64,000 nt of DNA from an uncultured delta proteobacterium (GCA_963767925.1 CAVYGB010000008.1:2752001-2816000), one strand, 5' to 3'. Positions 6,645-42,803 are shown, counted from the first letter of the stretch. A program made the numbers and translations. The notes: generated by a model from the letters alone, not told the origin.

Positions 6645-7676
6645 CTATAACTTCGGTAGAGCCTCTGTAATCACCTCGGCGGTGAAGTCAACCAAAGGGA
6701 TGACCTTGGAGTAGTTCATGCGCGAGGGACCGATGACCCCGATGGTGCCGAGGGGACGCCCCTCCCCACCATAGGTGGCGGCTACCACCGAGATGTCGGT
6801 GAGGTCGGGTAGGTTGGCTTCCGCCCCGATGAACACGCAGATGCCCGGCGCGGACAGGGTGCGGTCGAGCAGCCGGACCAGGAGGTCCTTCTCCTCCAGG
6901 GCCCGCATCACCCGCTTGGCCCGGTCGACGTCTTCGGTGCCGGTCAGGAGGTTGGACTGCCCGTCCACCAGCAGCACGCTGCCCGCGACCTCGGCAGGAA
7001 CGGCGGCGGCGGCCAGCTCGAGGGCCCGGGCCAGCACCTGATTGTTGGCGATCTTGTCGTCCTCGATCTCCTTGGCGATGCGGGTCCGCATCTCGGAGAG
7101 GGTGAGCCCCGCCACCAGGGTGTTGAGGTAGTTGTTGACCTGGTCGAGATCGCTGCCCGACAGGGAGAACTCGGTGGTGACGAGCTTGTTCTGGATCTGC
7201 CCGCTGGCCGTCGCGATGACGGCGAGCAGGGTGTTCTCCCGCAGCTTGACGAACTCCAGGTGGGAGATGGCGTCGTTCTCGGGGCGCGGCGCCTGCACCA
7301 CCACCGCGAGGTGAGACAGCTCGCGCAGCACCCGGGTGGTACGCTGCATGACCACGTCCTGGAGGTCGGAGGGGGCCACCGCCAGCCGCTCGCGGATGCC
7401 CTCCTTCTCGGTCTGCGAGAGGCTCCGCACGCGCAGCAGGGTGTCCACGTAGTAGCGCAAACCCCGATCGGTCGGGATCCGTCCGGCCGATGTGTGCAGG
7501 TGTCGGAGCAGGCCCTGGTCCTCGAGGTCGCTCATCACCGTGCGTACGGTGGCCGGCGACACGTCGACGCCGTAGCGGCGGGTGACCGTCTCGGAGCCGA
7601 CAGCTTCGCCGGTCGCCAGGTATTCGGACACCACGGCGTGCAAGATTCTCTTCGCCCGAGCGCCGATGTCCGTCAC
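6645..7676 (-). CDS. hrcA: Heat-inducible transcription repressor HrcA
   Basis: SPATVRTVMSDLE, HTSAGRIPTDRG, GVIGPSRMNY; upstream of grpE-dnaK. Confidence 0.95.
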   Translation of the reverse strand: MTDIGARAKRILHAVVSEYLATGEAVGSETVTRRYGVDVSPATVRTVMSDLEDQGLLRHLHTSAGRIPTDRGLRYYVDTLLRVRSLSQTEKEGIRERLAVAPSDLQDVVMQRTTRVLRELSHLAVVVQAPRPENDAISHLEFVKLRENTLLAVIATASGQIQNKLVTTEFSLSGSDLDQVNNYLNTLVAGLTLSEMRTRIAKEIEDDKIANNQVLARALELAAAAVPAEVAGSVLLVDGQSNLLTGTEDVDRAKRVMRALEEKDLLVRLLDRTLSAPGICVFIGAEANLPDLTDISVVAATYGGEGRPLGTIGVIGPSRMNYSKVIPLVDFTAEVITEALPKL

Positions 7677-8950
7677 AAGTTGTTGTATTTACCGTATTTG
7701 GCCGGCTGCAGCCACAGCCTGGCGGCCACTTCGTCGGCGAACAGGACACCTTCGTCGGAAAGACGCAGGACCTGGGGCGTCACGTCCAGCCAGCCGCTCG
7801 CCCGGCAACGCTCGGCCTCCCGGCTCCGCTCGGCGCTCTCCAGCGGGTCGGCGCCGAAGCGGCGGCGGTGCGCCTCCCGGTCGATACCGTCGCCAGTCCG
7901 CAGGCCGAGCCAGAGGGCCTCGTTCTCCAGATCGGCCGATGTCCGGCGCTCCACCTTGGCGGGCCGGGGTCCCCCGGCGCGGGCGGCCCCCCGCAGATAG
8001 GTCTCCGTGCTGCGCGGATTGGAGAAGCGCCAGCCGCTGCCGTCGGTGAGGGGCCGGAACGAGGCGGCGGAGGCGCCCACCCCCAGGTACGAGGCCTGGG
8101 TCCAGTAGAGCTGGTTGTGGACGGCACGGAAGCCGTCGCGGGCGTGGCTCGAGATCTCGTAGGCCCGGTAGCCCGCGTCGGCCAGGGCTCGTTTGCCCCA
8201 GCGAAACATCTCCGCCGCCACCTCGTCGTCGGGCCGCTCGAGCCGCCCCCGGCGGTTCAGCGAGGCATAGGCGGTCCCCGGCTCGACGGTGAGCGCGTAG
8301 GCCGAGACGTGCTCGGGGCCGAGGGCGACCAGCTCCTCCACCGATCGCTGCCACAGCGTCATCGTCTGGCCCGGCACGGCGAACATCAGGTCGCAGGTCA
8401 GGTTGGCAAAGCCCGCCCGCCGGGCGGCCTGAAACGCGGTGCGGGCGGCGGCGGCCCCGTGGTTGCGGCCCAGCCGCGTCAGCAGCCCGTCGTCGAGGGA
8501 CTGCACCCCCAGGGAGATCCGGTTGACCCCCGCCGCCGCCAGGGCCACGAACCGCGCCTCGTCCACCTCGCCCGGGTTGGCCTCGACGGTGATCTCCAGG
8601 CTGGCGGCGGGTCCGGCCTGGAAGCAGCGGCGCACGGTCTCGATGACCCGGCCGATCTGGGCCGGAAGCCACAACCCGGGGGTCCCGCCCCCGAAGTAGA
8701 GGCTGCGCAGGGCCGGGAGGGTCCCGCCGCCCCCTCCGAACCAGCTCGCCCGGGCCTCGATCTCGCCGATCACGGCGTCGGCGTAGGCGACGTGGGGGAT
8801 GTCGCTGCGCACGTCGACGGCGAAGTCGCAGTAGGGGCAACGCACGCCGCAGAACGGATAGTGGACGTACACACCGAGCGGGCGCGTCGCATCGAGCTCA
8901 CCGGCGTTCGGATCTTCCACGTCCGACAGGGTAGATTCCGGCGCTCGCAT
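7673..8950 (-). CDS. hemW: Radical SAM heme chaperone HemW (start ATG 8950 or GTG 8920)
   Basis: YVHYPFCGVRCPYCDF, YFGGGTP, HNQLYW; usual hemW-hrcA synteny. Confidence 0.9.
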   Translation of the reverse strand: MRAPESTLSDVEDPNAGELDATRPLGVYVHYPFCGVRCPYCDFAVDVRSDIPHVAYADAVIGEIEARASWFGGGGGTLPALRSLYFGGGTPGLWLPAQIGRVIETVRRCFQAGPAASLEITVEANPGEVDEARFVALAAAGVNRISLGVQSLDDGLLTRLGRNHGAAAARTAFQAARRAGFANLTCDLMFAVPGQTMTLWQRSVEELVALGPEHVSAYALTVEPGTAYASLNRRGRLERPDDEVAAEMFRWGKRALADAGYRAYEISSHARDGFRAVHNQLYWTQASYLGVGASAASFRPLTDGSGWRFSNPRSTETYLRGAARAGGPRPAKVERRTSADLENEALWLGLRTGDGIDREAHRRRFGADPLESAERSREAERCRASGWLDVTPQVLRLSDEGVLFADEVAARLWLQPAKYGKYNNL

Positions 8951-10121
8951 GATCTACCTGGACCACGCTGCTTCCACGCCTCCGGCGCCCGAAGCCCTCG
9001 AGGCCATGACGCAGGTGGCCCGGGACCACTTCGCCAATCCCTCCTCGGCGCACGCCTTCGGCGCCGCCGCCGCCCGCCTGCTCGAGCAGGCCCGCGAGGA
9101 GGTGGCCACCTGGCTGGGGGCTCGCCCGGCCGAGATCCTCTTCGTGAGCGGAGGGACCGAGGCCAACGCGCTCGCTGTCCTCGGCGCCGCCGCCGCGGGC
9201 CGGGGGCGCCACCTGGTGACAACCGCCATCGAGCACCCGGCGGTGCTGCGCTCGATCGAGCTGCTGGCCGGGCGCGGCTTCGAGGTGACCCGGGTGGCCC
9301 CCGCCGGAGATGGCCGGGTGCGGGCCGCCGACGTGCTGGCGGCGGTGCGGCCCGACACCGCCCTGTGCGCGGTCATGCTGGTCAACAACGAGCTCGGCAC
9401 CCTCCAGCCGGTGGCCGAGATCGCGGCCGGGCTCCGGGCGGCCGGCGCGCGGGCCCAGCTCCACTGCGACGCCGTCCAGGCGGCCGGGCTGGTCGCCCTC
9501 GACGTGCGCGAGCTGGGGGTCGATACCCTGGCGGTCTCGGCCCACAAGCTGCACGGTCCCCGGGGGGCGGGCGCCCTCTGGGTGCGCCCGGGGGCGCGGC
9601 TGGCGCCGCTCTGGGAGGGTGGCCGCCAGGAGCGCGGTCTGCGCTCGGGGACGGAGAACCTGCCGGCGCTGGTCGGCTTCGCCCGGGCCGCCACCCTGGC
9701 TCGATCCACGCGCGAGGGGGCGGCCCTGCTCGCCGGTCGGCGCGATCGGCTGGAGCAGGAGATCGCCGCCCGCCTGCCCCGATCCAGCCCCACCGTTCCG
9801 GCGGGCACCCCCCGGGCGCCCCACATCGCCAGCGTGCGGCTGCCCGGCCTGCCGGCCGAGCCCATCCTGCACGCCCTCGAGGCCCGTGGCGTCCAGGCCT
9901 CGGCCGGATCGGCCTGCGCGACCCGCACGCGCGGGCCCAGCCACGTGCTGCAGGCCATCGGCGTGAGCGAAGACGCGGCCGTGCTGCGCTTCTCGCTCGC
10001 CCGCACCACCACCGACGAGGAGGTGGTGGCCGCCGCCCGCGCGCTGGCCGAGGCGGTCGAGGAGGTGGCGGCGGTCGCCCAGACGTTTGCGGGCCGCGCC
10101 CGGAGAGGACAGTCCCGATGA
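8949..10121 (+). CDS. PLP-dependent cysteine desulfurase (IscS/NifZ type)
   Basis: [24 protein letters not shown] (PLP Lys), RSGTEN, SAGSAC (catalytic Cys). Confidence 0.93.
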
Positions 10122-11317
10122 GCAACCCCATCATCCTGTGTCGGTTCGGCGAGCTGTTCCTCAAGCTGGGGAATCGCCCGCGCTTCGAGCAGCAGCTCCA
10201 GGGCAACATCCGGACGGCCCTGGCCGGACTGCCCGGAGTCGCCATCACGGCCCCCCACGGGCGGGTGCTCGTGCGCGCCACCGACGACACGCTGGCCGAG
10301 GCCTGCGCCCGCCTCGAGCGGGTGTTCGGCCTGGTCTCGATCTCGCCCGGGCGCGAGGTGCTGCCCGACATCGAGGCGATCTCCGCCGCCGCCCTCCTGG
10401 CGGCCGGGACCGCCCTCGAGCGCAATCCCGCCCTCCGGCGCAGCTTCCGCATCGAGGCCCGGCGCTCGGACAAGCGCTTCCCCCTCTCCTCCCAGGAGAT
10501 CGGCGTGCGCCTGGGCGCCGAGGTCAACCAGGCCACCGGCGTCCCGGTCGACCTGGAGAACCCGGCCCTGGTGGTGGGCGTCGAGGTGGGGCGCGAGGCG
10601 GCCTACGTCTTCGTCGAGACACGGGCGGCCCCCGGCGGCCTGCCGGTCGGCAGCTCGGGGAACGCGCTGCTGCTGCTGTCGGGAGGCATCGATTCGCCGG
10701 TGGCCGGCTGGCTGGCGGCCAAGCGCGGCCTCACGCTCGAGGGGATCTACTTTCACTCCCCGCCCTTCGTCGGGGAGAAGTCGCGGGACAAGGTGCTCTC
10801 GCTGGCCCGCGCCCTCGGCCGCTGGCAGGCCCTGCGCGCGCTGCACATCGTGCATTTCACCGACACCCAGAAGCGCCTGCGCGAGGCCGGCCCGGCCGAG
10901 CTGGCGGTGGTGCTCTACCGCCGCATGATGATGCGGGCCGCGGATCCGATCGCCGACCACATCCGGGCGCCGGCCCTGGTCACCGGGGAGAACCTCGGGC
11001 AGGTGGCCAGCCAGACCCTGGTCAACCTCGGCACCATCGAGGCGGCCGCCCGCCGGATCGTGCTGCGCCCGCTCGTGACCTACGACAAGCAGGAGACGGT
11101 CGCTCTGGCCCGCCGCATCGGAACCTACGACCTCTCGATCCTCCCCTACGACGACTGCTGCTCCCTGTTCGTCCCCCCCCACCCCGCCACGAGCGCCCGC
11201 CTGGCCGAGGTCGAGCGGGCCGAGGCGAGCCTGGACCTGGCGGCCGAGGCGACAGCCCTGGCCGCCTCGGTCGAAACGGTCTCCCTGAGCGGGTCGTCCA
11301 CCCCTCACGCCGGGTAG
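10118..11317 (+). CDS. thiI: tRNA 4-thiouridine synthase ThiI (THUMP + PP-loop, no rhodanese domain)
   Basis: [37 protein letters not shown] overlaps the desulfurase stop. Confidence 0.93.
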
Positions 11318-11327
11318 TGAACTTGGT

Positions 11328-11333
11328 TATACT
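11328..11333 (+). promoter_or_regulatory. Putative -10 element (TATACT) 7 nt before larE GTG
   Basis: TATACT-gccggac-GTG; no Shine-Dalgarno sequence. Confidence 0.45.
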
Positions 11334-11340
11334 GCCGGAC

Positions 11341-12165
11341 GTGGACGTAGCCGCGAAGCACCAGAAGTTGCGCGAGATCGTCTCGAGGTACGACTCGGCC
11401 CTCGTCTGTTTTTCAGGCGGGGTCGACTCGATGCTGCTCCTGCGCGTCGCCCATGACGTGCTGGGCGACCGCTGCGTCGCCATGACTGCCGTCTCCATCA
11501 CCATGGCCCGCAGTGAGCGGCAGGCGGCGATGGACCTGGCCAGCGGGCTGGGGGTCCGGCACGAGATGGTCGAGTCCAACGAGCTCGAGCGCCCCGGCTT
11601 CGCCCAGAACCCCACCAACCGCTGTTACCACTGCAAGTCGGAGCTGCTCGAGATCGCCGGCCCGGCCGCGCAGCGCCTGGGCCTGCGCGAGATCCTGCTC
11701 GGCACCAACCTCGACGACCTCGGGGATCACCGCCCCGGCCTCGACGCGGCGAAGGAGCGGGGCGCCCGCCAGCCCATGGTCGAGGCCCAGCTCGACAAGG
11801 CCGAGGTGCGCATGTTGTCCCGGGAGCTGGGCCTGCCCACCTGGGACAAGCCGCAGCTGGCCTGCCTGTCGTCGCGCTTCCCCTACGGCACCGAGATCAC
11901 CGCCGAGAAGCTGCAGCAGGTCGACGCCTTCGAAGACGGGCTGCGGGCGCTCGGGTTCCGCCAGCTGCGGGTCCGTTACCACGGCGAGGTGGCCCGCCTG
12001 GAGCTCGAGGCGGGCACCATGAGCCTGGCCCTCGACCCGCAGGTCCGGCCGCGCATCGTCGAGCTGGGGCGCCGCGTCGGCTTCACCTTCGTCGCCCTCG
12101 ACCTGGCCGGGTTCGCCTCGGGGTCCCTGAACCAGCTCATCGGTCTGCGTCGGGCCGGCGGCTGA
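11341..12165 (+). CDS. larE: ATP-dependent sulfur transferase LarE (NPN cofactor biosynthesis)
   Basis: FSGGVDS PP-loop, NRCYHCK, GTNLDDLGDHRPG, WDKPQLACLSSRFPYG, LRVRYHG. Confidence 0.92.
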   Translation: MDVAAKHQKLREIVSRYDSALVCFSGGVDSMLLLRVAHDVLGDRCVAMTAVSITMARSERQAAMDLASGLGVRHEMVESNELERPGFAQNPTNRCYHCKSELLEIAGPAAQRLGLREILLGTNLDDLGDHRPGLDAAKERGARQPMVEAQLDKAEVRMLSRELGLPTWDKPQLACLSSRFPYGTEITAEKLQQVDAFEDGLRALGFRQLRVRYHGEVARLELEAGTMSLALDPQVRPRIVELGRRVGFTFVALDLAGFASGSLNQLIGLRRAGG

Positions 12166-12321
12166 GGCGGCGTCAGGCCCGCGCCGCGCCCCGCCGTGGA
12201 TGTGCTCGGTCGGCCTGTGGTTAACTACCAGGTACCCCTCGTTTTTCGCGGGGGCAATTTGCACCGTCGCCGGCTCAATTAAAATCCCCGAAGGGTCGTT
12301 GTCTTCTCCAGAGAGGATGCT

Positions 12322-13038
12322 GTGTTCACCTTACTGGTTCTAGCCGCTCTTCCCCTGTTCCCGCCCTCCCTCAACGAGCTGGAAGTGCTCCCCCTGGCGG
12401 GTGCCCCGGAGCTCTGTGACGTCGCCCTGGTCCGGCGCGCCCCTGGCCGCGAGCTTTCCAAGAAGCAGGCCTGGCTGGAAGAGAAGGGCAGCCGGGTCGA
12501 TGTTCACCTGACCTCTGCCGACTTCCCCAAGGCGCGCACCTCGGGGCGAAAGCCGGCGGGGGCCACCCTGGCCCAGGCGGCGGAGCGGCAGACGCCCGGC
12601 ACGATTGCCATGCCGGTGACGACCCTGTTCAACCTGAGGACGCGCGAGTCGCTGTCGCTGCTCCCGGGGGTGGCGCTGTCCGAGCGCTTCCACGTGTTCC
12701 TCCGCGATCACTTCACCAACCAGGCCACCCGCATGGACGAGCGGCTGGTGCAGGTGCTCACCAACGTCGCCCGCCGCTTCTCCGCCGAGCGGATCGAGGT
12801 GGTCTCGGGCTACCGCTCGCCGAAGTACAACGTGATGCTGCGCAAGAAGGGCCGGGAAGTGGCCCGCACCAGTCAGCACACCGAGGGCAACGCGGTCGAC
12901 TTCCGGCTGCGCGGCATCCCCACCCGCCGCCTGCTCAACTTCGTCCGCTCGCTGAAGATCGGCGGCGTGGGCTATTACCCCCACTCGCAGTTCGTGCACA
13001 GCGACACCGGCCGCGTCCGCTACTGGCGCGGAAGCTGA
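12322..13038 (+). CDS. YcbK/DUF882 family (peptidase M15) protein
   Basis: FLRDH, VVSGYRSPKYN, SQHTEGNAVD, GGVGYYP..FVHSDTG. Confidence 0.88.
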   Translation: MFTLLVLAALPLFPPSLNELEVLPLAGAPELCDVALVRRAPGRELSKKQAWLEEKGSRVDVHLTSADFPKARTSGRKPAGATLAQAAERQTPGTIAMPVTTLFNLRTRESLSLLPGVALSERFHVFLRDHFTNQATRMDERLVQVLTNVARRFSAERIEVVSGYRSPKYNVMLRKKGREVARTSQHTEGNAVDFRLRGIPTRRLLNFVRSLKIGGVGYYPHSQFVHSDTGRVRYWRGS

Positions 13039-38738: not shown

Positions 38739-40486
38739 AACGCGGTGATATCTCCTTTGTGCTCCGGCGGCCCCAGGGGGGTGACCGGCAACGTGACGAG
38801 GAAGGTTGTACCGCTGCCCGGGCGACTCTGAAAGCTGATCTGGCCCCCATGTGAATAGATGATGTTCCGGACCACGGAGAGCCCCAGGCCGGTGCCCTTT
38901 CCCGCCGCTTTGGTGGTGAAGAAGGGCTCGAAGATCTTGCTGCGGTCCTCGTCGCGGATGCCGACGCCGCTGTCGGAGATGGCGAACCCCACCGTGGCGC
39001 CCCCCGCGGCCCAGGTGCGGACCCGCACCGTGCCCCCGCGCGGCTCGACCGCGTGGGCGGCGTTGGTCACCAGGTTGATGGCTACCTGCAGGATCTGGTC
39101 GCGCACCGCCTGCACGCGCGGCAGGCCCTCGGCGTAGTCGCGCTCGAGCTTGGCGTTGGAGCTCTCGAGCACGTGCTCGCAGAACGACAGCGACTGGTCG
39201 AGCACCTCGTTGATGGCCATCTCCTCGACCTCGCTGCCCGAGGGCCGGGCGTAGCTCACCAGGTCGCGGGCGAAGCGCCGGATGCGCTCGGCGCCGTCCT
39301 CGATCTTGCGCAGGCGATCGAGGTCGGTGGCGTCGATCGTGCTGGGCCCCTTGCCCTCGAGGGCCAGGGCCGCCTTGCGGGCGACGGTGGCGGCGCAGAC
39401 CTGCACCGACGTGAGCGGGTTGTTGATCTCGTGGGCCACGCCGGCGGCGATCTGGCCCAGGGTGGCCAGCTTCTCGGCGTGGATGACCTGGCTCTGGAGC
39501 TGGCGCAGGGCGGTCACGTCCTGCCCGATCCCCAGCACGGCGGCGGGAGAGCCGCCCTGCCCCCGCACCGCCACCACGTTGAAGGCGGCCCGCAACATGG
39601 CGCCCCCCACGGTGGGCAGGCGGACCTCGCGGGTGGCGGGGGTGCCGCTGGCGGCGACCTGCTTGAGCACCCGGCCCACGTCGGGCGCGCCGAGCTGGGT
39701 CAACCAGGGGAGCAGCGGCTTGCCGAGGACGTCGGCCCGGGAGAAGCCGGTCACCCGGTTCATGGCCCGGTTCCAGACCGTGACCTGCCCCTCGGGATCG
39801 GTGGCGATGATGAGGGCGTTGGCCTGCTCGATGAGCTGCTCGAGGTAATCTTGCAGGTAGACCGTCTCGCGCAGCAGCCGCCTCGTGTGGGCCACGAAGG
39901 CCACGTGGTTGGCCAGCGGGATGACGAGATCCTTGTCGTCCATGGCCGGGTCGGGCGGCTCGGCGTAATTGACGTGGACCTCGCCGGTCAGCTCCCCGCC
40001 GGCGAGGAGGGCCACCAGGAAGCCCTCGCTCGCCCCCTCGAACAGCAGGGGCGGCTTGTCGACAAGCTCGATGGTGCGGGTGGAGCCGTCTTTGGCCCGC
40101 AGGCCCTCCGGCATGTTGCCCCGGACATTGGGGTGATCGAGGGCGCTGCGCGGGATCATCGGCGGCAGGGTGCGGGCCCCCGCGATGAGGCCTTTCTCCG
40201 AGAGGACCTGGCTGACCTCCAGCGAACGGGGGTCGACGACCCGGATGGCGATGAAGCGGTTGGGCAGGAGCTGGCGCAGGGTCCGGTAGAGGACCTCGAA
40301 CAGCTCGCGCTCCTGGGTCTCGGCGGTGACCTCCCGGGAGAAGGTCATCACCGCGCGCAGCACGTCCGGGATGGACATGGCGGTCGGGACCGCCGCCGCC
40401 GGCTTCTTGCGCCGGGCGGTCGCCTTGGTCTTCGGCCCACCCCGCCGGTAGGCGGTCGCCCCACGCCCCATCCCCCGTGCCGCCAT
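38735..40486 (-). CDS. Cytoplasmic GAF-like/PAS sensor histidine kinase
   Basis: PAS (WNRAM..VTG), [46 protein letters not shown]. Confidence 0.92.
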
Positions 40487-42027
40487 CAGCGTCTGGCCCT
40501 GGTTCCTGCTTTCGCTCCTGGCAGTCCGAACTGGTAGGTGGCGGCGGCGCTGGCGGCGGCGAGGACGGCCCGCAGGGGGGCCTGCCCGGCCTTGGCCAGC
40601 CGGCGGCAGTCCTCGAACTCGGGGGTGGCGGCCAGGACGCGCCCGTCGAGGGCGGAGACCTTGACCGAGACCTTGCCCCAGGGGGTCTTCACCTCGCCAC
40701 GCGAGCGGGCCAGCACGGTGCGCCCCAGGGGCAAGCTGCGCAGCCCGATCGTGGTTGAGTTCTCGAAGAAGGCCCGGGCCACCTGCTCGGTCTCGCCGGC
40801 CGGGGCCAGGGCCGAGATGGTGAAGGCCGGGCGGCCCTTCTTCATCAAGATGGGCGTGCTCCAGGCGTCGACGGCGCCGGCGGCGAAGAGGGCGGTCAGC
40901 AGAGGCTCGATGAGCTGGGGGCTCATGTCGTCGATGTTGCTCTCGAGCAACGTCACGCTGGGGGCCGAGTCGGGCAGCGCCTCGCCCAGCGGCTGGCCCA
41001 GCACGACCCGCAGCACGTTGGCCCGGTCGGCCAGCTCGCGGGTGCCGGCGCCCAGCCCCTGTCCCGCGAGGCGCAGCGGGGGCATGGGGCCGTAGCGGTC
41101 GACGACCGCCGCGAGGATGGCGGCCCCCGTGGGGGTTGTCAGCTCGCCCTGCCCTTCGGCCCGCACCGGCGCGCCGGCCAGGAGCTGGGTGGTGGCGGGC
41201 GCCGGGACCGGCACCAGCCCGTGCGCCGTGCGCACCACGCCGCTGCCGACCACGACCGGGCTCGAGCTGATCGAGGCCGGGGCGAGCCAGGTGATGGCCG
41301 CGGCGGCGCCGACGATGTCGGCGATCGAGTCGTAGGCCCCGACCTCGTGAAAGGCGATCCGGTCGACCGGCACCCCGTGCAGGGCCGCCTCGGCCCGGGC
41401 GACGAGGGCGAAGATCTCCCCGGCCAGCTCCCGCGTGTCGCCGTCGAGCTTGGCCCGCTTGAGCAGGCGCCGGATCTCGGCGTAGTCCCGGTGCTCGTGA
41501 TGGTGGTGGCCCCCTTCCGGATCATGCCTGTGATCGGGGGCGTCGTGGTGATGATCCGTGTCGTGATCGTGTTCGTGGTCGCCGCCGTGCTCGTGGCGGT
41601 GGCCGTGGGAGAGGTGGTCGTGATCGTGCGGGTGTGCGTGGGCGTGCTCGCCGTCGTGATCGTGTGGGTGCTGGTGACCGTCCGCCCCGCGCTCGTGGGG
41701 GTGGGCGTGCGAATGTTGGTGGGTGTGGGCGTGCGAGTGGGCCTGGCCTTTGCCGCCTGCCTTGCTGCCGGCCTGGCCCCCGGCTTTGCGGGGTCGCTTC
41801 GGTCTGGGCATGCCCGGCCAGGTCACCTCGAAGCCGGTGCCCATGAAGGCGCCCCGCTTGCGCCGGGTGAAGCGCACCTTGAGGCCACGCACCTTCATGG
41901 CCGACACCGCCGCGCTCACGACGGTCCGGGGAACGCCGGCGTCGACCAGGGCGGCCACCGTCATGTCGCCCGCGATCCCGGACTGGGGATCGAAGTGCAG
42001 GTGCAGCCCCTTGCCGAGAGCGCTCAT
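40486..42027 (-). CDS. larC: Nickel insertase LarC with long His-rich insert
   Basis: SGIAGDM, FHEVGAYDSIADIVG, VPAPAT, GELTTPTGA, LESNIDD, MKKGRP, TTIGLR, PEFEDC. Confidence 0.95.
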   Translation of the reverse strand: MSALGKGLHLHFDPQSGIAGDMTVAALVDAGVPRTVVSAAVSAMKVRGLKVRFTRRKRGAFMGTGFEVTWPGMPRPKRPRKAGGQAGSKAGGKGQAHSHAHTHQHSHAHPHERGADGHQHPHDHDGEHAHAHPHDHDHLSHGHRHEHGGDHEHDHDTDHHHDAPDHRHDPEGGHHHHEHRDYAEIRRLLKRAKLDGDTRELAGEIFALVARAEAALHGVPVDRIAFHEVGAYDSIADIVGAAAAITWLAPASISSSPVVVGSGVVRTAHGLVPVPAPATTQLLAGAPVRAEGQGELTTPTGAAILAAVVDRYGPMPPLRLAGQGLGAGTRELADRANVLRVVLGQPLGEALPDSAPSVTLLESNIDDMSPQLIEPLLTALFAAGAVDAWSTPILMKKGRPAFTISALAPAGETEQVARAFFENSTTIGLRSLPLGRTVLARSRGEVKTPWGKVSVKVSALDGRVLAATPEFEDCRRLAKAGQAPLRAVLAAASAAATYQFGLPGAKAGTRARR

Positions 42028-42803
42028 GGGGTGCGGACCCGGTTGAGCAGCGCCGCCAGGCGGCCGGCGCCGAAGCCGTTGTCGATGTTGACCACCGCCA
42101 CCCCCGCCGCGCAGGAGTTGAGCATGGTGAGCAGCGCCGCCACGCCGGCGAAGCTGGCGCCGTAGCCCACGCTGGTCGGCACGGCGATGACCGGCCGCGA
42201 GAACAGCCCCGCCACAAAGGTGGGCAGGACCCCGTCCATCCCGGCGGCGACGACGACGATCTCGGCCGCCTCCACCGTCGTGCGGTGGGCGAGCAGCCGG
42301 TGAATGCCGGCCACCCCCACGTCGAAGACCCGGGTCACCCGGTTGCCCGAGAGCTCGGCGGTCACCGCCGCCTCCTCGGCCACGGGGATGTCGGAGGTGC
42401 CTGCCGTCAAGACGGCGATGATGCCCCGCCCGGCGTCGGGCACCGAGGCGGGCCCGCGCACCAGCAGCCGCGGCACCTCGAGGTAACGGGCGTCGGGTAA
42501 CAAGGCCAGCACCGCTTGCGCGACGTCCGGCGTGATCCGGGTGGCCATGACCGGCGCGACCGCGGTCCCCTGGCTGCCCCCCGCGTCCCCCAGCTCGCGC
42601 AGGAGGGTGGTGATCTGCTCGGGCGTCTTGCCGGGCCCGAAGATGACCTCGGGGAACCCCGAGCGAAGTTGCCGATGTGTGTCGGCGTGGGCAAAGCCGA
42701 GCGAGCGGAAGGGCAGCTCCCGGAGCTGCGAGAGCGCGTCGTCCGCCGAAACCGAGCCCGCACGGACGTCCTCCAGAAGGCGCCGCAGCGAAGTTGCATC
42801 CAC
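42024..42803 (-). CDS. larB: NaAD carboxylase/hydrolase LarB
   Basis: GFPEVIFGPGKT, AGTSDIPVAEEA, DVGVAGIHRL, PTSVGYGA, MLNSCAAG..VVNIDNGFGA. Confidence 0.95.
   Translation of the reverse strand: MDATSLRRLLEDVRAGSVSADDALSQLRELPFRSLGFAHADTHRQLRSGFPEVIFGPGKTPEQITTLLRELGDAGGSQGTAVAPVMATRITPDVAQAVLALLPDARYLEVPRLLVRGPASVPDAGRGIIAVLTAGTSDIPVAEEAAVTAELSGNRVTRVFDVGVAGIHRLLAHRTTVEAAEIVVVAAGMDGVLPTFVAGLFSRPVIAVPTSVGYGASFAGVAALLTMLNSCAAGVAVVNIDNGFGAGRLAALLNRVRTP

Follow-up and report, generated by a model that had tools for sequence, protein, structure and literature searches.

Does one cysteine desulfurase feed sulfur to two different thiolating enzymes, the tRNA 4-thiouridine synthase ThiI and the nickel-pincer cofactor enzyme LarE? 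The question is raised by three plus-strand genes at 8949-12165 of a 64,000-nt stretch of DNA from an uncultured delta proteobacterium (the window; G+C ~71%), which encode, in order, a class-V cysteine desulfurase, a ThiI without a rhodanese domain, and LarE; the genome (9.3 Mb in 13 contigs, completeness 84%) belongs to a Polyangia family. An initial annotation of the window had proposed that the one desulfurase serves both PP-loop thiolases, and the two halves of that proposal fare differently. Transfer from the desulfurase to ThiI is well supported by analogy and by conserved pairing of the genes. Transfer to LarE is suggested by operon structure together with indirect context, and we regard this step as evenly balanced; that a single enzyme supplies both acceptors is likewise about an even call. 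The three enzymes are ordinary members of known families, and the arrangement is a lineage-specific extension of the known dedicated desulfurase-ThiI operon by an iron-sulfur (Fe-S)-type LarE.

The desulfurase, ThiI and LarE genes

The three genes are tightly packed (Table 1). The desulfurase and thiI overlap as ATGA, with the TGA of the former at 10119-10121 and the ATG of the latter at 10118-10120. Three in-frame starts are available for larE, a GTG at 11317 that overlaps the thiI TAG by 1 nt, a TTG at 11323, and a GTG at 11341 that leaves a 23-nt gap, so that the thiI-larE spacing is between -1 and +23 nt depending on the start chosen; the copy of this LarE in the protein collection is 282 aa long, corresponding to the start at 11317, and close relatives are 274-280 aa. 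A scan of 8500-12500 found no promoter-like site inside the three-gene set. The sole match in that interval lies downstream of larE, compared with an average of 0.0 in shuffled sequences, and probably marks the 3' limit of the operon. A terminator scan of the same interval found none and shuffles gave an average of 0.9, a result that is uninformative at 71-75% G+C. We infer that the desulfurase, thiI and larE constitute one operon and are co-transcribed.

The best NCBIfam matches of the desulfurase are of the NifS/IscS type, all below the equivalog cut-offs (NifS 349 bits against 531; IscS models 256-267 bits, with 256 against 643; NF002806 260 bits). Its class-V fold, K200, C323, position directly upstream of thiI and conserved pairing are those of a NifZ-type desulfurase, and it is distinct from the IscS of this genome, which scores 655 bits on the model on which this enzyme scores 256. 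ThiI, the only one in the genome, has the Pfam domains ThiI_fer, THUMP and ThiI, and a Pfam search of the 399-aa protein gave no rhodanese match; its best solved relatives are 2c5s (413 aa, E 5e-83) and 4kr6 (388 aa). Archaeal Fe-S ThiI proteins have a CXXC plus cysteine cluster ligands in the PP-loop domain; we rejected this assignment here because the protein has no CXXC and only four cysteines (C8, C63, C347 and C348). The primary NifZ paper is reportedly Rajakovich 2012. Equivalence of the conserved ThiI cysteine to E. coli Cys344 follows the available part of PMC5372745.

Similarity to the dedicated pairs of Bacillus subtilis extends beyond this locus. According to the same part of PMC5372745, NifZ-ThiI and YrvO-MnmA are dedicated desulfurase-thiolase pairs in B. 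subtilis, and nifZ, which encodes an IscS-like desulfurase, immediately precedes a thiI whose product lacks a rhodanese domain and has a CC site, as here and as the initial annotation had stated for short ThiI proteins. Eleven PF00266 matches are present in our genome. One is a true IscS, followed by IscU, HscB and HscA (G000:C8 ~974.5-979.3 kb; L140), and a separate class-V desulfurase lies directly upstream of MnmA (G000:C8:1679374-1681602; L141:2875-5103), resembling yrvO-mnmA; further family members include a SufS-family enzyme beside XdhC/MocA genes and one of the VC1184 type. By this analogy the genome appears to pair each acceptor with its own desulfurase, as Bacillus does (NifZ-ThiI, YrvO-MnmA), beside an iron-sulfur cluster (ISC) system.

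LarE matches the Lactiplantibacillus plantarum LarE structures (5udq and relatives, E 2e-42) and is the one LarE above the cut-off in the whole genome. Each of the best 120 among 7,995 proteins at E <= 1e-10 shares 75% identity or more with LarE, which is too near for a wider survey, and class loci were aligned instead. In the alignment of 10 class homologues Cys95, Cys98 and Cys175 are all invariant, as are S178, R210 and R212, which correspond to Ser180, Arg212 and Arg214 of L. plantarum LarE that bind the phosphate of the mononucleotide of pyridinium-3,5-biscarboxylic acid (P2CMN). A structure deposited as an NAD_synthase domain protein (8cnz), which we take to be Methanococcus maripaludis LarE, has a CYNC motif and a third cysteine at matching positions. 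Ala174, which immediately precedes Cys175, is aligned with Cys176 of L. plantarum, and the same shift of the third cysteine is described for the [4Fe-4S] LarE of Thermotoga maritima (PMC9283937, in part). These features predict that LarE belongs to the [4Fe-4S] CXXC-C subtype.

The genome holds a complete set of lar genes, namely larE, larB, larC and three LarA homologues (Lar_N matches, all outside the window), and larC lies 28.3 kb from the end of larE. On these structural points the initial annotation, which had described the 4-nt overlap, larE within 23 nt, a ThiI lacking rhodanese, the CYHC plus distal cysteine of LarE, and a distance of about 28 kb to larBC, is borne out. LarE presence tracks LarC and not ThiI in 14 of 15 further genomes checked: LarC is present in all 10 checked genomes with a LarE in sulfur context and absent from all four class genomes without LarE, two of which still have ThiI. 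We therefore rejected a role of LarE as a ThiI accessory as the main reading, since those two genomes keep ThiI without LarE and LarC. One family genome (G009, completeness 96%) has LarC, and neither LarE nor ThiI was found in it, which would fit larE and thiI lying on one unassembled piece. LarC in the window carries a His/Asp-rich insert of ~90 residues (~41530-41800, minus strand) that is presumably nickel-binding.

In the proposed relay, the NifZ-type desulfurase would take sulfur from cysteine as a Cys323 persulfide, and ThiI would adenylate U8 and accept the persulfide on Cys347/348 to give 4-thiouridine at tRNA position 8. LarE would hold a [4Fe-4S] cluster on Cys95, Cys98 and Cys175, the free iron of which probably takes sulfane sulfur from the desulfurase. 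By analogy with T. maritima LarE, it would then deliver sulfur twice to adenylated P2CMN to form the bisthiocarboxylic acid mononucleotide P2TMN catalytically, and LarB and LarC, encoded 28 kb away, would carry out the remaining steps of nickel-pincer nucleotide (NPN) synthesis. That a three-cysteine LarE can take sulfur from a desulfurase, as the initial annotation had stated, is documented for T. maritima, whose CXXC-C LarE is a [4Fe-4S] protein that accepts sulfane sulfur in vitro from E. coli IscS (PMC9283937, in part).

Table 1. Features of the window and of comparable loci. Positions are those of the whole 64,000-nt window, except in the last row, which gives loci of the survey; LarE residues are numbered from the GTG at 11341.
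Feature	Position	Strand	Basis or remark
Group-I (IscS/NifS-like) class-V cysteine desulfurase, 390 aa	8949..10121	+	PF00266 229 bits
Lys200 codon (SAHK), taken as the pyridoxal phosphate (PLP)-binding lysine	9546..9548	+	Invariant in 17 aligned desulfurases; role from family knowledge
Cys323 codon (SAGSAC), taken as the persulfide-forming cysteine	9915..9917	+	Invariant in 17 aligned desulfurases; role from family knowledge
thiI, tRNA U8 4-sulfurtransferase, short form, 399 aa	10118..11317	+	TIGR00342 333.5 bits, cut-off 264.5
ThiI PP-loop SGGIDS	10679..10696	+	Aligns to 2c5s motif
ThiI Cys347-Cys348 (DDCC), likely persulfide acceptor	11156..11161	+	Aligns to EDCC of 2c5s
larE, PP-loop sulfur insertase for the nickel-pincer cofactor, 274-282 aa	11317..12165 (alternative starts 11323, 11341)	+	TIGR00268 304 bits, cut-off 150
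LarE PP-loop SGGVDS, residues 25-30	11413..11430	+	S25, G26, G27, D29, S30 invariant
LarE CYHC (Cys95, Cys98), predicted first two cluster ligands of CXXC-C	11623..11634	+	Invariant; aligns to CYNC of 8cnz
LarE Cys175 in ACLSSR, predicted third cluster ligand	11863..11865	+	Invariant
Sigma-70-like promoter match	12258..12285	+	Consensus match only; ahead of next gene
hemW-like radical SAM gene	7673..8950	-	Divergent from operon; TIGR00539 240 bits, cut-off 205
MepK-like M15 peptidase gene (mepK)	12322..13038	+	PF05951 127 bits; downstream neighbour
larC (nickel insertion)	40486..42027	-	TIGR00299 194.5 bits, cut-off 90
larB, start uncertain	~42024..42803	-	NF033503 261 bits, cut-off 175; ATGA overlap with larC
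(Rrf2-)CysK-LarE loci	~4850-6800 in L043, L044, L045, L046, L052, L077, L104; also L014; L023/L143:2485-5910

The annotated ATG of the divergent hemW gene and that of the desulfurase overlap as CATG at 8948-8951. There are two readings: the promoter of each gene is located within the other, or hemW truly begins further in; the hemW family match begins at residue 27.

Sulfur-supply genes beside CXXC-type LarE

We surveyed larE neighbourhoods using patterns from the PP-loop and CXXC region, with one genome per species; the sample thus consists of CXXC-type LarE alone, and from at least 561 confirmed LarE loci the best 80 were kept, a set biased towards relatives of the query. Flanks extend up to 6 kb on each side, and several loci are cut by contig ends. 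The full trio was found at one of the 80 loci (L042), a close relative of the same lineage, and larB and/or larC are nearby in 15. A sulfur-supply or thiolation gene is within two genes of larE in 18 of the 80, as judged from the 286 nearest open reading frames (ORFs) and tblastn. The commonest such neighbour is CysK, directly upstream and on the same strand in seven loci (the first seven in the last row of Table 1; TIGR01139 449 bits for that of L043), and CysK is 0.5 kb from larE in L072. Rrf2 regulators are near larE in L044, L046, L052 and L053, a ThiI-like PP-loop/NFACT-R protein in L054, L097 and L101, MnmA in L086, TusA and ThiF in L058, a Cys/Met PLP enzyme in L094, and IscU (NifU_N) with ThiF just downstream in L048.

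Comparable contexts occur in other genomes of the class. G029 has the order Rrf2-CysK-LarE-NifS-like desulfurase (15-nt gap), after which come genes for ThiF, CBS and a Cys/Met PLP enzyme, and G025 has Rrf2-CysK-LarE-radical SAM/BATS. LarE of G028 follows a ThiF::ThiS fusion, a JAB peptidase and ATP sulfurylase (L145:3293-8029), which is a thiocarboxylate-carrier context, and that of G032 follows ATP sulfurylase (L146:4976-6960). The (Rrf2-)CysK-LarE arrangement recurs in Desulfuromonadota-like, Binatia, Bacillota and Polyangia genomes, and LarC is encoded elsewhere in the seven genomes checked (those of L044, L045, L046, L053 and L104, together with G025 and G029). On a quick IQ-TREE phylogeny built from 109 LarE sequences (L095, one of 110 loci, was dropped for an in-frame stop), CysK-linked LarEs are at no fewer than six places, from which we conclude that placement of CXXC-type larE is clearly non-random relative to sulfur metabolism; this makes the position of larE behind a desulfurase in our window more likely to be meaningful. 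Like the window locus, the Rrf2-CysK-LarE(-desulfurase) loci have a CXXC-type LarE away from larBC and beside sulfur-making or relay genes, although the partner there is usually a cysteine synthase with an Rrf2 regulator and not a desulfurase-ThiI pair. Our literature search found no description of the CysK-LarE arrangement; in the available part of a Thi4 study (PMC13325395), LarE is only listed among genes near Thi4.

In three related loci of the survey (L054:4880-5887, L097:1282-2292 and L101:4667-5950) the protein encoded directly upstream of larE is ~336 aa long (ORF of up to 428 aa in L101) and has a ThiI-like PP-loop domain and an NFACT-R_2 RNA-binding domain; it could be an RNA thiolase, as yet uncharacterised, that is paired with LarE. 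Quinolinate synthase, the product of nadA, makes the precursor of the nicotinic acid adenine dinucleotide (NaAD) used by LarB; we observed mnmA-larE-nadA at L086:1484-4341 and nadA-larE at L085:5055-6813. A radical SAM/BATS (BioB-like) protein is encoded immediately downstream of larE in two families (L144:6882-8659 in G025; L147:386-2187 for the second LarE of G029). In a Caldilineaceae metagenome-assembled genome (L117:3992-8203), larB-larE-larC is directly preceded by an aldo/keto reductase gene, which fits the NPN-dependent aldo/keto reductase family of PMC13524815 (in part).

Conservation of the adjacency and possible alternative routes of sulfur to LarE

We examined 41 related genomes, of which 36 have LarE and 37 have ThiI, and compared coordinates in 25 genomes of the window's Polyangia family (including G000) and in the 13 other families of the class. 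The initial annotation had counted a lack of conservation in relatives against its proposal, and on this point the result is divided: inside the family 18 of 25 genomes have thiI next to larE, and outside it the adjacency is missing. In one additional family genome (G018) the two genes are at matching ends of two contigs, which fits adjacency across a contig break. LarE identity among the family genomes with the adjacency is 66-87%, and the spacing between the thiI stop and the nearest larE start ranges from -8 to +75 nt across the 16 trio loci. Of 18 further ThiI loci, 16 have the desulfurase gene immediately before thiI (the exceptions being G023 and G036), and a divergent hemW is beside the pair in six of the 18; we take (hemW<>)desulfurase-thiI as the ancestral unit because of this retention. 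The family LarEs form a single clade of 22 rows (SH-aLRT 96), which includes L042 of the broad survey, and the tree requires linkage to thiI to have been gained once and lost four to five times. We conclude that larE was appended once to desulfurase-thiI, in the ancestor of one Polyangia family. At G010:C41:21590-37950, thiI and larE share a strand and are separated by 14.5 kb, as though the operon had been interrupted by an insertion, with a GreA-like gene before larE.

Several observations weigh against a shared sulfur supply. With all family LarEs in one clade, the adjacency is one evolutionary event and not repeated evidence, and in the other families both genes are present in 11 genomes and adjacent in none. 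Within the family thiI and larE are apart in five of 25 genomes (G006, G008, G010, G014 and G023), through at least four events of loss, and in four of the five the desulfurase stays with thiI; the neighbours of the relocated larE genes are not sulfur genes, and include those for an SRPBCC protein, a major facilitator superfamily transporter, a GreA-like protein and an AbiEi/MarR-type regulator. We used mepK, which is apparently unrelated and has its own promoter-like site, as a neutral benchmark of synteny: across 21 family loci, thiI is beside larE in 15 and mepK is on the same strand in 13. As thiI is retained about as well as mepK, conservation alone is no argument for coupling, and we rejected the view that conservation in relatives proves it, given the single origin. 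In the broad survey a desulfurase is within 6 kb of larE in three of 80 loci (L042, in the trio; L083, 1.4 kb downstream; L119, 3.5 kb upstream), about as often as chance would have it for a family so numerous (11 PF00266 matches in our genome), and we rejected a general desulfurase-LarE linkage as a rule. Finally, a foreign IscS served T. maritima LarE, so that donor specificity may be low, and the housekeeping IscS of this genome could serve LarE instead.

The main alternative is a historical accident in which larE landed once behind desulfurase-thiI and is co-transcribed with it, and LarE obtains its sulfur and its cluster from IscS/ISC or any desulfurase, so that its gene position would imply no specificity for a donor. 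We consider this a serious possibility that falls short of even. It draws on the single origin, on loss of the adjacency with LarE intact, on retention no better than that of mepK, on absence of the adjacency from the 11 other-family genomes although desulfurase-thiI is kept, and on the true ISC operon of this genome; in T. maritima, moreover, the heterologous IscS serves LarE and the organism's own desulfurase genes are distant (PMC9283937, in part). An accident is, however, less expected where junctions are uniformly tight in 16 loci, where the genome otherwise has one desulfurase per acceptor, and where LarE recurs in sulfur-supply neighbourhoods of several lineages.

The desulfurase might alternatively serve LarE indirectly, by providing sulfur for building or repairing its [4Fe-4S] cluster and not for the non-core sulfide that enters the cofactor, which we judge improbable. 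NifS of B. subtilis is reportedly devoted to one Fe-S enzyme, NadA, and the IscU gene with ThiF just downstream of larE in L048 would suit such a role, but the operon here has no scaffold gene, a full ISC operon for cluster assembly is present in the genome, and cluster-loaded LarE of T. maritima received sulfane directly (PMC9283937, in part). Finally, a LarE homologue acting outside NPN synthesis, thiolating another carboxylate or RNA alongside ThiI, might be suspected from LarE homologues beside tRNA-thiolase-type PP-loop genes (ThiI-like/NFACT-R in L054, L097 and L101; MnmA in L086), but is very unlikely for a sole LarE that shares its genome with larB, larC and three LarA homologues, conserves the P2CMN phosphate-binding residues, and follows LarC rather than ThiI in its distribution.

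Comparison with known systems

The shared-sulfur reading is plausible, although the operon arrangement is not proof of it; the second desulfurase paired with MnmA and the separate IscS-IscU-HscB-HscA operon of this genome, together with the frequent position of LarE beside sulfur-supply genes elsewhere (18 of 80), favour a functional link. The initial proposal of one desulfurase for two thiolases thus stands for ThiI, with the pair in 16 of 18 loci, and for LarE is carried by operon structure plus indirect context. A more ambitious form, in which the NifZ-type desulfurase is a dedicated dual-acceptor donor to the ThiI cysteine persulfide and the LarE cluster non-core sulfide, and in which Fe-S-type LarE is more generally wired into Rrf2-CysK, ThiF/ThiS, TusA and desulfurase modules such that sulfur status, and not only the lar genes, would control NPN synthesis, is tentative and in our estimation rather unlikely.

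Three known systems bear on the window locus. It differs from B. subtilis nifZ-thiI (PMC5372745, in part) in the addition of larE, with which one desulfurase would serve both a ThiI persulfide and a cluster-bound sulfide on LarE, and in its host, a Gram-negative myxobacterium that keeps a full ISC operon; the desulfurase-mnmA pair of the same genome parallels B. subtilis yrvO-mnmA. The T. maritima LarE (PMC9283937, in part) has the same CXXC-C cysteines, with the third shifted by one residue, the PP-loop and the P2CMN-binding residues, but the desulfurase genes are distant from larE in that organism, whereas here a desulfurase is placed by its sequence context in the same operon. The L. plantarum lar operon encodes a LarE of the same family and the same pathway genes as are found in our genome; its LarE lacks CXXC and sacrifices Cys176, whereas the LarE here has the CXXC, is encoded 28 kb from larBC, and has no LarA gene within the window. 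Literature searches on LarE with desulfurase returned no report of a larE-desulfurase operon, and the term desulfurase is absent from PMC13524815.

Sulfur donation to [4Fe-4S]-type LarE has had a sole test, that of E. coli IscS with T. maritima LarE (PMC9283937, in part). With larE directly behind a specialised desulfurase, the window offers a natural donor-acceptor pair, for which the genome's IscS and MnmA-linked desulfurase are built-in comparators. More broadly, CXXC-type larE is often found away from larBC and beside cysK, Rrf2 and sulfur-relay genes, which suggests that NPN supply may be tied to sulfur status.

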